A stretch of DNA of 64,000 bases from Deltaproteobacteria bacterium (GTDB lineage Bacteria > Desulfobacterota > Binatia > UBA9968), in NCBI GenBank assembly GCA_016210115.1, contig JACQUW010000312.1, positions 3-64,002 of the forward strand. Reading direction: 5' to 3'. Position 1 is the first letter of the stretch. The number at the start of each line of letters is the position of its first letter. The notes below the pieces were generated by a model. That model saw nothing but the letters and a program-made list of their open reading frames with translations, did no database searches and had not been told where the DNA came from. Positions 8,874 to 61,069 of this stretch are shown here, one piece after another. The translations under genes were made by a program, and so were the position numbers.

Positions 8874-9428
8874 ATGATCGTTCTAAGTCCGGAGGGGAAA
8901 GCGCGAACGACCGCGCGGCGCGTTCCAGCCTTGCCGCGTTTCCCGGATCTTAACGGGAAGACTCTCGGCCTATTGGATAACAGCAAGCCCAACGCGGACA
9001 AGCTGGAGGAGCGTTTCGAGGAGATTCTCAAGCAGACGTTTAATCTTGCCGGCGTTATCCGGCGGCGCAAGATCTCCGCCCAGCAGGGCGCGCCGAAGGC
9101 TTATCTGGACGAGCTCGCTGCTCAGGCCGATTTTGTCATCAGCGGTTTAGGAGATTGAGGGTCGTGCACATCGTGGAGTATCCACGACAGCATAGAATTA
9201 CAAAAGCGCGGAAGATTTGCGGTCACCGTCATTACGCACGCATTCGAAGCTCTGGCCAAGTCGGAGAGAGAAGCTTTTGGCGCTCCGGATCATCCGATAC
9301 TGATCGTGCAACATCCGATCGGCACGGTCAAGTTGGAACAAGTTCGAAAACGCGCAGACGCCGCTTTCGATAAACTCCTGGAACTTTTGGTCGAGCCACA
9401 GCAGCGCAAAGCAGTCGCAGGAAGCTAG
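8874..9428 (+). CDS. UGSC-family selenoprotein (Sec codon TGA 9156-9158), 184 aa
   Basis: SGLGD-TGA-GSCTSWSIHD...QHPIG reads through to TAG 9428; paralogue at 48350 has TGA at the same position; downstream hairpin. Confidence 0.9.
9171..9187 (+). promoter_or_regulatory. putative bacterial SECIS hairpin
   Basis: TCGTGGA-GTA-TCCACGA, perfect 7-bp stem 12 nt after TGA. Confidence 0.75.
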
Positions 9429-47283: not shown

Positions 47284-48315
47284 ATGATGGAACAGTACGT
47301 CGATCAGATCCCGGACGATCTGGCGGCGGCTTTTGATTGGTGTCTCGAACATGAACTGACGGACGGCCTTCCTGTAGTGCCGCCCAGCCGTCGCCTTATA
47401 GAGGCCATGGTGGAGCGCGGGCGGCGAGAGGCCGCGGAGGTCTTAGGCCGTCTTGCGCCGAGTAATCAGGAATTCACCGTTCTCGATCTGGCGGTAAACG
47501 CCGTCATGGCGGGCTGCCTTCCCGATTATTTCCCCGTGGTTCTCGCGGCTGCCGAAGCCATGCTGGACCCGCGTTTCCGCGCCGGCGAAGTCCAGGCTAC
47601 GTCCCGCCCCTGCGGCCCCATGATCATCGTCAATGGGCCGATTGCAAAGCGATTAGGGATCGAGCACTTCAACCATTGCTTTGGCTCCGGTTTCCGAGCG
47701 AACGCAACGATCGGCCGGAGTCTACGGCTGGTCCTGATGAATCTGGGCGGCGGGAGACCTGGAAGGGGAGACGCTGCAGCTTTCGGTTGGCCCGGAAAGA
47801 TCTCATTTTGTTGGGCAGAAAACGAAGACCCGAAGTTGAATCCGTGGGAGCCTTTGCACGTGGAGCGGGACTTTTCTCCAGAGGAAAGCGCCGTCACCGT
47901 GGCTGCCGTGAACGGCTATTACAACTGTTCGGGGGGACGCCCCTCCGTAGCGGAAGCGATGAGGATGTTTGGCTTTTCAATGTCGAACGCGACGGATCAC
48001 CTGCTATGGCACGGCCAACCGATTCTTGTAATGGGCATCGAGAAAGCGGGCATGATGAGACAAGCAGGAATCACCAAGGGAGAGGCGAAGAGGCTTCTTT
48101 TCGAGCAGGCGCAAGCGCCGGCTTCGGCGCTTTCGGATGAAGTTCTTTTGGAGCTCAAGAAAAGCCGCATGGATTTGAATCCTTCAGGTATGCTTAGCGT
48201 CGCAGACAGCGCGGAAGACATTATCCTCGCAGTCGCCGGAGGCTGGGGCCCTCACTCGGTTTTTCTCCCCACTTTACCGAGCTCGCAGGCGGTCACAAAG
48301 AAAATTATGGAGTAG
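47284..48315 (+). CDS. UGSC-associated 'TDGLP' family protein 2
   Basis: LTDGLPVVPPS, AVNAVMAGC, ANATIGRSLRL, GWPG, PWEPLH. Confidence 0.85.
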   Translation: MMEQYVDQIPDDLAAAFDWCLEHELTDGLPVVPPSRRLIEAMVERGRREAAEVLGRLAPSNQEFTVLDLAVNAVMAGCLPDYFPVVLAAAEAMLDPRFRAGEVQATSRPCGPMIIVNGPIAKRLGIEHFNHCFGSGFRANATIGRSLRLVLMNLGGGRPGRGDAAAFGWPGKISFCWAENEDPKLNPWEPLHVERDFSPEESAVTVAAVNGYYNCSGGRPSVAEAMRMFGFSMSNATDHLLWHGQPILVMGIEKAGMMRQAGITKGEAKRLLFEQAQAPASALSDEVLLELKKSRMDLNPSGMLSVADSAEDIILAVAGGWGPHSVFLPTLPSSQAVTKKIME

Positions 48316-48349: not shown

Positions 48350-48916
48350 ATGGCAGTTATTTTGGATCCGGTGGGCCAGGTGAGAGGTGGAGAGCGGCAG
48401 CTCAACCCGCGCCTCAACTCTCTTGACGGGAAAACGATCGGAGTGATCGTGAATGGCCAGCCCAATGCGCCGGTGGTATTGGGATACGTGGCCGAGCTTT
48501 TGCAGAAAGATTTTCCTTCCGCTCAAATCATCATTCGAACCAAACCAAGCTACAGGAACCGCGCTCCGGAGGAGATTCTAAGCGAGATGAGCGCGAGGGC
48601 GCATGTGGTGATTACCGGGCTGGGCGCCTGAGGCTCCTGCACGTCGTGGAGTGTCCACGATGGAATCGAGATGGAAAAGCGAGGAAAGGTAGCGGTGACG
48701 GTCGTGGAGGATGTTTTTGTGACCCTCGCGAAAGGAGAGAGAAAGGCGCTCGGAATGCCTTCGTTCCCGCTGGTCGTGGTGCCGCATCATAACTCCGCGG
48801 ATGCCGTGAGGGATCAGGTTCGAAATGAAGTGGCCGAGGCTCTGCCGAAAATCTTAGAGGCGTTGACACAATCCACAATAGGTGAGGCCGCAGCCGATTC
48901 CTTTGCGCCGGCTTAA
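48350..48916 (+). CDS. UGSC-family selenoprotein (Sec codon TGA 48629-48631), 188 aa
   Basis: TGLGA-TGA-GSCTSWSVHD joins track ORFs 48350-48631 and 48671-48916 in frame; RBS AAGGAGG. Confidence 0.9.
48642..48662 (+). promoter_or_regulatory. putative bacterial SECIS hairpin
   Basis: CGTCGTGGA-GTG-TCCACGATG, 9-bp stem with one G-U; core 12 nt after TGA. Confidence 0.75.
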
Positions 48917-49060: not shown

Positions 49061-50089
49061 TTGGCGACTGCACGCGCGCGATCATTAGAAATTCCCGACG
49101 CGCCCAACGAGGCTTTTGATTGGTTTGTCAACCAGAGGATGACTGACGGGCTTCCGGTTATTCCGCCGACGGAAGAAAGAGTCGACGCCGTGTTGGGCGG
49201 CACGCGAAGAGAACGCGCGGAAGAGATCGGGCTCATACCGCCGCGATGGGCAAGCGGCACGGTGGAAAAGCTTGCCATCAATGCGGTGATGGCTGGATGT
49301 CTCCCTGAATACATGCCCGTGCTGCTCGCCGCCGTGGAAGCGCTTCTTGACCCGCGCTACAACGTATACGGTACCCAGGCAACGACCCATCCGGGCGCTC
49401 CAATGGTCATTGTGCATGGTCCTGCCGCCAAGCAACTCCAAATCGCTTCCGGGAGCGGCTGTTTTGGACCGGGCTATAGGCCCAATCTCACAATCGGCCG
49501 CGCGATAAGATTATTTCTCGTGAATGTGGGCGGTTCCTTGCCCACCGAGGGCACGATGTCCACGTTTGGCTGGCCGGGCCGCTATTCATTTTGCTGGGCA
49601 GAGGCTGAAGAGGCGAGTCCATGGTCGCCGTACCATGCCGACAAGGGTTTTGACGCGAACCAGAGCGCGGTTACCGTGGCGCACATCGGCGGCTTTACAG
49701 ATATTCACGATCCGTACAGCAAGTCGGCTCCCAGCCTGCTCAAGTCTCTTGCTTACGGCATGACAAGCAAGAGCACCAATATTGGAGGCGGCGGTAATCC
49801 CGCCTGTGTCTTAAGCCCCGCGCATGCCCGCCTCCTCGCCCGGGAGGGAGTTTCGAAAACTGACGTTCGAAAGTATCTCTGCGAAAATGCCCGGGCTCAG
49901 CCTCGCCGGCTCGGTATGGAGAGCGTCGAAAATTTCGAGCGCACCACGATCGACTCGGAAGGGCTGCTGCGGATAGCCGACGAAGAGGAGGGAATTCAAA
50001 TCCTCGTCGCGGGAGGAGAGGGACCCCACTCCGCCGGCCTGTTCACATGGGGCCGCGAATCTCTCTGGGTCACCAAGGCTGTTCAGTAG
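49061..50089 (+). CDS. UGSC-associated 'TDGLP' family protein 3
   Basis: MTDGLPVIPPT, AINAVMAGC, TIGRAIRL, GWPG. Confidence 0.85.
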   Translation: MATARARSLEIPDAPNEAFDWFVNQRMTDGLPVIPPTEERVDAVLGGTRRERAEEIGLIPPRWASGTVEKLAINAVMAGCLPEYMPVLLAAVEALLDPRYNVYGTQATTHPGAPMVIVHGPAAKQLQIASGSGCFGPGYRPNLTIGRAIRLFLVNVGGSLPTEGTMSTFGWPGRYSFCWAEAEEASPWSPYHADKGFDANQSAVTVAHIGGFTDIHDPYSKSAPSLLKSLAYGMTSKSTNIGGGGNPACVLSPAHARLLAREGVSKTDVRKYLCENARAQPRRLGMESVENFERTTIDSEGLLRIADEEEGIQILVAGGEGPHSAGLFTWGRESLWVTKAVQ

Positions 50090-60835: not shown

Positions 60836-61069
60836 ATGGCTAAATCGGTTGTTACCTTCACCCAACCTGGCTGAGGCCCCTGCCATAGCGAGAAGGAGTT
60901 TCTTTCTCAGAAGGGGGTTTCGTTTACGGACAAAAACGTGCGAGAGGACCCGGCGGCGTTGCAGGAGCTTCTGGCTCTGGGTTATCGGAGCACTCCAGTA
61001 ACGCTCATCGATGGTGAAGCGGTTGTTGGTTTTGATCAGGAAAAAATCGAGAAGCTTCTCGGATTGTAA
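60836..61069 (+). CDS. glutaredoxin/NrdH-like selenoprotein (UGPC; TGA 60872-60874), 77 aa; absent from ORF track
   Basis: MAKSVVTFTQPG-U-GPCHSEKEFLSQKGVSFTDKNV...GYRSTPVTLIDGEAVVGFD. Confidence 0.88.
60890..60908 (+). promoter_or_regulatory. putative bacterial SECIS hairpin
   Basis: GAGAAGGA-GTT-TCTTTCTC, 8-bp stem with one G-U, 15 nt after TGA. Confidence 0.7.

Follow-up and report, generated by a model that had tools for sequence, protein, structure and literature searches.

In bacteria, decoding of UGA as selenocysteine (Sec) requires a SECIS-type element, and the C-terminal domain of SelB from E. coli and Moorella binds the apical G and U of this element. The general bacterial SECIS model of Zhang and Gladyshev, as given in PMC13188914, combines an apical loop of 3-9 nt, a stem of 4-16 bp and a spacing of 16-37 nt with a minimum free energy (MFE) of -7.5 kcal/mol or lower. 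It also places a G within the first two loop positions, most often as N1-G[G|U]N-N2, where N1 pairs with N2 (PMC13188914). In E. coli, the upper stem-loop spans nt 15-31 and includes G23 and U24 (PMC8659212). The UGSC family, to which two of the genes described below belong, was first listed as a 'UGSC-containing protein' of unknown function (PMC1976440).

The DNA analysed here (the window) was a stretch of 64,000 nucleotides from contig JACQUW010000312.1 of a Deltaproteobacteria bacterium (assembly GCA_016210115.1). The genome is a metagenome-assembled genome (MAG) of 8.35 Mb (431 contigs, 55% GC), estimated as 99% complete with 8.94% contamination. Outside of the Sec sites TGA was a normal stop codon, and 5174 TGAs that closed open frames 150 codons long or longer served as controls. 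The genes for the Sec machinery were present (Table 1). The hairpin of selD (CAA-GUC-UUG) had its loop G unusually distant from the UGA, at nt 37.

Three SECIS hairpins of the window

A preliminary description of the window had reported three hairpins sharing the apex GGA-GUN-UCY in three selenoprotein genes. The sequence confirmed all three, together with the stated spacing from the TGA and the translation of the apex in two different frames. The upper stem was 7 bp long in gene A (loop GUA) and 8 bp long in the glutaredoxin-like (Grx-like) gene (loop GUU), and the helix of gene B (loop GUG) could be extended to 9 bp. From the A of the TGA to the loop G there were 19, 19 and 23 bases in gene A, gene B and the Grx-like gene, respectively, which placed this G at nt 23, 23 and 27 when the U of the UGA was counted as 1; both UGSC loops thus began with G23 and U24. 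The UGSC apex was translated as TGG-AGT-(A/G)TC (W-S-I/V), with the loop G at the second codon position, and the Grx-like apex as AAG-GAG-TTT (K-E-F), with the loop G at the third. Each hairpin was predicted by RNAfold within a 50-nt stretch, at -12.8 (A), -16.0 (B) and -21.9 (Grx-like) kcal/mol. The corresponding z-scores against shuffles were -2.42, -1.67 and -2.76 and were modest when taken alone. Since they were just -1.7 to -2.8, folding energy by itself was weak proof of the hairpins.

Table 1. Location of the genes, Sec codons and hairpins discussed in the text (window positions unless a contig is named)
Feature	Position	Strand	Details
UGSC-family selenoprotein gene A	8874-9428	+	184 codons reading through a single in-frame TGA; putative start
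Sec-UGA of gene A	9156-9158	+	GD-U-GSC; in register with the TGA in 5 paralogs
SECIS upper stem-loop of gene A	9171-9187	+	stem TCGTGGA 9171-9177, loop GTA 9178-9180, closing arm TCCACGA 9181-9187
UGSC-family selenoprotein gene B	about 48350-48916	+	putative start at the ATG of MAVILDP
Sec-UGA of gene B	48629-48631	+	GA-U-GSC
SECIS upper stem-loop of gene B	48642-48662	+	core stem TCGTGGA 48644-48650, loop GTG 48651-48653, closing arm TCCACGA 48654-48660
Glutaredoxin-like (YruB/NrdH-like) selenoprotein gene	60836-61069	+	77 codons; U-G-P-C
Sec-UGA of the Grx-like gene	60872-60874	+	PG-U-GPC; homologs elsewhere have TGA or TGY there
SECIS upper stem-loop of the Grx-like gene	60890-60908	+	stem GAGAAGGA 60890-60897, loop GTT 60898-60900, closing arm TCTTTCTC 60901-60908
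Additional lower helix of the Grx-like gene (predicted)	60874-60882 with 60913-60921		
Paralogous flanking proteins, ~340-350 aa	9550-10602; 47284-48315; 49061-50089	+	three genes flanking the UGSC genes
selA, selB, selD	C216:9823-14206	-	in a row; selD with an in-frame TGA, G-G-U-A-A-K-L-G
tRNA-Sec	C32:9054-9148	-	anticodon TCA; contig separate from selA, selB and selD
GrdB paralog aligned with gene A (L034)	C122:19117-20592	-	
BNR/Asp-box repeat protein, candidate TGA (L083)	C310:790-792	-	S-P-D-C-F-U-G-W
Meth_synt_2 protein, Sec site	C207:14340-14342	-	F-H-L-C
Sulf_transp protein, Sec site	C153:2049-2051	+	W-A-K-G-U-A-T-S

All three genes could be assigned to known families. Gene A matched PF24696 (UGSC) at 6.9e-47 with 160.2 bits (cut-off 25), the domain at residues 3-173 spanning the Sec-UGA, and gene B matched it at 6.2e-46 with 157.1 bits. 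Against NF041046 (cut-off 125), gene A scored above the threshold (135.8 bits) and gene B slightly below it (118.3 bits). Both carried the U in the U-G-S-C motif, and nothing set them apart from the family. The closest named relative of gene A was in a Candidatus Binatia MAG, at 78% identity. The Grx-like gene matched PF00462 at 1.1e-12, with residues 5-63 spanning the U at residue 13; it scored 71.3 bits against TIGR02196, below the cut-off of 88.55, and its greatest resemblance was to the YruB/NrdH-like glutaredoxins. Since the domains span the TGA, the hairpins agree with the general model and the Sec machinery is encoded, the earlier assignment of three selenoprotein genes with SECIS hairpins was supported.

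The paralogous proteins that flank the UGSC genes (Table 1) had no match in Pfam, NCBIfam or PDB sequences, the PDB query being one 350-aa protein. On contigs C37 and C108, as in numerous genomes besides this one, the same domain was seemingly fused to UGSC, in open frames of 535-620 aa. The flanking protein is probably the functional partner of the UGSC module.

Compared with the general model, the three sites satisfied every requirement: the loops were 3 nt long, the stems 7, 9 and 8 bp, the spacings 19, 19 and 23 nt, and the MFE values low enough. They were alike to the elements described in PMC13188914 in their place within the coding region, directly 3' of the Sec-UGA, in the loop that begins with G-U, in the flanking pair and in spacing, with no substantial difference, and their loops were at the small end of the 3-9 nt range. 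The features common to all three sites, namely a small, often pair-closed apical loop that starts with G-U and lies ~20-27 nt past the UGA, are those of the general bacterial SECIS. An Rfam search returned no family matching the hairpins and produced noise only (E above 1).

The UGSC hairpins were also placed similarly to the E. coli fdhF SECIS, at nt 16-32 with G23 and U24. Both fdh genes of the present genome had the apex CC-GGUCU-GG with G22, G23 and U24. In contrast to the fdhF element, the UGSC and Grx-like stems were perfect and lacked the bulged U17, their predicted loops had 3 nt rather than 4-5 nt, and the loop G of the Grx-like gene was at nt 27 instead of 23. Both the element and the gene families were known before, and the hairpins of the window add new examples.

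It was very probable that the three hairpins are canonical bacterial SECIS elements whose apical likeness combines a general pattern, a trait of the UGSC family and a coincidence in the Grx-like gene, rather than a consensus of the SelB of this organism. The G-U that opens a small pair-flanked loop would then be the published general pattern N1-G[G/U]N-N2. The first two sites would be paralogs, with a hairpin that belongs to the UGSC family across phyla, is upheld by compensatory changes and may co-determine the protein motif S-W-S-[IV]-H-D. Finally, the GGA...UCY match with the Grx-like gene would be a coincidence of W-S-V/I and K-E-F-L, both of which can be encoded by self-complementary RNA. 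By analogy with E. coli fdhF, the C-terminal domain of SelB would bind the apical G and U, and the tethered SelB-GTP-Sec-tRNASec would allow the UGA, ~11 nt upstream of the stem, to be decoded as Sec at the A site. The ribosome would subsequently melt the hairpin, which may then refold.

Selenoprotein genes across the genome

The list of Sec genes was built from Sec/Cys and Sec/Sec alignments of paralogs, family searches that read through stop codons, a second pass for hairpins with a G-first loop, and a check that a Pfam domain spanned the site. Relying as it did on paralogy, on Pfam and, in the second pass, on hairpins, the list was incomplete and partly dependent on structure. Most alignments from the within-genome BLAST joined paralogs out of frame, the TGA facing R, G or W, and its matches were retained only if they resembled a redox motif and then passed Pfam. 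Codon-usage scoring of the frames around the TGA discriminated poorly, with true sites scoring down to -0.07, and was therefore kept merely as a loose filter. A filter rejecting sites where another frame was open for at least 110 codons was abandoned since true sites, such as the second site of the window, were lost. Pfam also identified two candidates as gene junctions (L023, E1 alpha/beta; L030, HigB/HigA) and matched no family to candidates L028, L029, L031, L032, L084 and L086-L089, all of which were rejected.

In total, there were 56 Sec-UGA sites in 16 Pfam families: 55 tabulated sites with Pfam support and one more Grx-like site. The tabulated sites belonged to GrdB (20), AhpC-TSA/deiodinase-like (8), UGSC (6), OsmC (3), CMD (3), GrdA (2), Grx-like (2, the third having been found separately), Rhodanese (2), formate dehydrogenase (2) and, with one site each, Pyr_redox, PCYCGC, Methyltransferase, C_GCAxxG_C_C, SelD, Sulf_transp and Meth_synt_2. 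The genome thus appeared to hold at least 56 selenoprotein genes, although it is a MAG with 8.94% contamination and the list was not fully curated. This is near the largest bacterial selenoproteomes given in PMC13188914, which have 57 and 63 members.

The 20 GrdB-family (PF07355) paralogs had the TGA directly after the Pfam domain, in the motif U-G-[ST]-[CGSD]-T-R-S-G, and were found on contigs C103, C106, C122, C130, C158, C161, C190, C194, C237, C254, C277, C291, C335, C386, C396 and C409. They were not strain duplicates, since their best pairwise identities were 40-85%. Against these 20 genes, the genome had just two GrdA genes.

Several single genes are worth recording. The Meth_synt_2 protein (cobalamin-independent methionine synthase-like) had U where three paralogs had Cys, at a zinc-ligand position. 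In the Sulf_transp gene, which encodes a YeeE/YedE-like membrane protein, the Sec codon was followed by a 10-bp hairpin. The BNR/Asp-box repeat protein was a further candidate; downstream of its in-frame TGA, a 7-bp hairpin displayed the GGUCU loop of the fdh type (G22, G23, U24), and the Pfam check found no domain across the site.

Hairpins of the general kind were a frequent property of the Sec sites. When hairpins of at least 5 bp were counted that start 18-40 nt from the UGA and have G as first or second loop base, 43 of 47 Sec sites had one, compared to 23.8% of the 5174 controls. Nt 23 was a G at 37 of 55 Sec sites (26.3% of control TGAs), and G23-U24 occurred at 16 of 55 (5.1% of control TGAs).

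These numbers bear on a weaker form of lineage specificity, in which the SelB of this organism would favour an unusually compact apex: a triloop that opens with G at about nt 23 and frequently has an A-U closing pair, of which the three sites of the window would be good examples. Consistent with such a preference, 40 of 55 Sec sites gave a G-first triloop in a scan for perfect stems, and with stems of at least 5 bp such triloops were present at 32 of 47 Sec sites versus 4.95% of control TGAs. Moreover, A-U was the closing pair in about 6 of the 16 independent hairpin types outside UGSC, compared with 13% in the background. However, 20 of the 40 triloops came from the GrdB paralogs, the triloops of the UGSC and Grx hairpins recurred in other phyla or all through the phylum sample, and triloops fall inside the general model of PMC13188914. 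In addition, a predicted triloop closed by A-U may actually be a loop of 5 nt. We therefore consider such a preference unlikely.

Covariation of the UGSC hairpin

The UGSC hairpin was not confined to this genome. The form TCGTGGA-GTR-TCCACGA was found in the UGSC genes of two Binatia MAGs and an Acidimicrobiales MAG and, with the first T replaced, in a Dehalococcoidaceae MAG. A Dehalococcoidia MAG had the compensated form TCGAGCA-GTT-TGCTCGA, and an Acidobacteriota MAG the apex GGG-GTG-CCC. The sole Cys form found, in a Rhizobiaceae MAG, was without the hairpin. Within the same phylum, PF24696 was present in 34 of 301 genomes, nearly always with one TGA.

For the covariation analysis proposed in the preliminary description we used an ungapped alignment (A2) of 35 distinct Sec-form UGSC sequences. 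Four of these belong to this genome and 8 to named records, and the phylum sample supplied the other 23. It leaves out 7 of the 39 scanned UGSC loci, which the search pattern missed (L050, L067, L068, L071-L074). One locus (L038) was added by hand, and the Cys form (L043) and two false pattern hits (L048:1072 and a TAA site in L052) were dropped.

The analysis supported the hairpin clearly. Across the 35 sequences, 91.4% of the cells in the 7-bp helix were paired, and five of the seven pairs had changed on both sides (33 cells). The covariation score was 0.378 compared to 0.140 in shuffles, none of 500 shuffles was as high, and sliding the partner column gave at most 0.124. The apex was GGA/UCC in 17 sequences and GCA/UGC in another 17. 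Accordingly, the GG of GGA was not conserved in the family: pair 21-27 was divided evenly between C-G and G-C, with 17 sequences each, and the form GGAGTNTCC was carried by only 10 of the 35. Some of the stem changes were synonymous swaps of TCG/CAC to TCA/CAT. Others altered the protein: the pairing links the residue six after Sec (W, C, S or G) with the residue nine after it (H or L), such that W or C went with H, and S or G with L.

Because of this covariation and the recurrence across phyla, we regard the UGSC hairpin as a real selected RNA structure that is inherited with the gene family and not with the lineage. It offers a clean, covariation-backed case of a coding-region RNA structure that accompanies its gene family from phylum to phylum and leaves its mark on a protein motif. 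The passages of PMC1976440 consulted did not describe a family-wide covarying SECIS in UGSC genes.

The Grx hairpin presented a different situation. Among the homologs from the same phylum sample, all 16 listed Sec forms had a hairpin at the same place, as judged by eye, with the apex AGA-GUU-UCU in 7, GGA-GUU-UCU in 3 and variants in the remainder. The motif K-E-F-L-S-Q was also kept in five Cys-form homologs, one of which (L112) still formed AAAGA-GUU-UCUUU. Much of the Grx apex can thus be attributed to the protein motif. For the same reason, the argument of the preliminary description that two reading frames reveal conservation at the RNA level failed for the Grx-like gene; the conservation itself stood for UGSC, where it was carried by covariation.

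One could extend the protein-based explanation to both families and regard the hairpins as by-products of S-W-S-[IV]-H-D and K-E-F-L-S-Q with no function at the RNA level. The Cys-form Grx homologs, including the one that retains a hairpin, fit this view, as does the inherent complementarity of Lys/Glu codons to Phe/Leu/Ser codons. On the other hand, the UGSC stem outlasted amino-acid replacement through paired changes and was preserved by synonymous swaps, the Cys-form UGSC had no hairpin, and bacterial Sec decoding requires a SECIS-type element in any case. The loop G of Grx pointed the same way, as all 16 listed Sec forms kept it and one of the 5 Cys forms did not, in numbers too small for a test. 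Taken together, a pure by-product was highly improbable, and functional SECIS elements remain our preferred reading.

The Sec region of gene A could be aligned with the C-terminal Sec region of a GrdB paralog (L034), U on U. BLASTP gave an E-value of 0.018 for the two Sec regions, and hhalign a probability of 89.7% with an E-value of 1.8e-6 over 76 columns. Both elements had the SECIS loop G at nt 23 and stems one base apart, while the stem letters were wholly different. The stems in this comparison were UCGUGGA/UCCACGA, UCGUGCA/UGCACGA, UCGAGCA/UGCUCGA and UCGCAGC/GCUGCGA. Tentatively, the Sec modules of UGSC and GrdB might be distant homologs in which the SECIS was kept at G23 as its stem letters were replaced, with RNA pairing dictating residues six and nine and SelB tolerating or preferring a minimal G-first triloop; as a whole, this combination would be a possible rather than a likely scenario.

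The GGA-GUN-UCY apex as a proposed genome consensus

The preliminary description had further proposed that GGA-GUN-UCY was a lineage-specific consensus suitable for mining the whole selenoproteome. This part did not survive, since 50 of the 56 Sec sites were without the motif. GGAGTNTCY followed six sites in 2 of the 16 families, namely five UGSC paralogs and the Grx-like gene of the window. It was absent from both fdh genes and selD, for which the preliminary description had suggested an enrichment test, as well as from both GrdA genes, all 20 GrdB genes and 10 further families. The apexes were AGC-GGY-GCU or CAG-CGGGU-CUG in the 20 GrdB genes, UGA-GGU-UCA in GrdA and GCG-GUA-CGC in OsmC. Even within the two families the motif was not constant: the apex was GGU-CGUGA-ACC in the sixth UGSC paralog, on C108, and among the three Grx-like genes of the genome one had GGA while the others had AGA-GUU-UCU.

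The motif was nevertheless far from equally frequent after true TGA stops. It occurred 15-30 nt downstream of 6 of 47 Sec-TGAs versus 2 of the 5174 TGAs ending frames of at least 150 codons. Five of the six, however, were paralogs from the UGSC family, so that the enrichment came from this family and a single additional gene. The bare core GGAGTNTCY was found 626 times in the genome, 81 times in hairpins of at least 5 bp. Six of these 81 hairpins were located 23 or 27 nt past a TGA that was flanked by long open frames before and after it, and they were the three sites of the window and three UGSC genes on C37. The other 75 had no relation to any read-through TGA. Separately, the bare motif hit 22 further TGAs capable of read-through, which showed no selenoprotein signal, the Pfam check not extending to every one of them.

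A consensus imposed by the SelB of this organism on all of its selenoprotein genes was hardly credible: its enrichment over control TGAs, its occurrence in two unrelated families and two reading frames and the related GGA-GGU-UCC in a third family were set against the many Sec sites that lacked it, the variation inside its own two families, the identical hairpin in UGSC genes of other phyla and the change of GG to GC in half of the 35 UGSC genes. The likeness of the apexes was better described by the combination of general pattern, family trait and coincidence. As for coincidence, GGA/UCY closed 1.3% of the G-first triloop hairpins genome-wide (465 of 35940). Among ~16 independent non-UGSC hairpin types it was seen in two, the Grx-like gene of the window and the deiodinase-like gene with GGA-GGU-UCC, a slight excess over background (roughly p = 0.02) that counts somewhat against coincidence, in a post hoc comparison for which we counted independence ourselves. 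A scan with GGAGTNTC would retrieve about one in nine selenoprotein genes of this genome, all of them from two families, and mining would do better to combine Sec/Cys homology with the general SECIS model.
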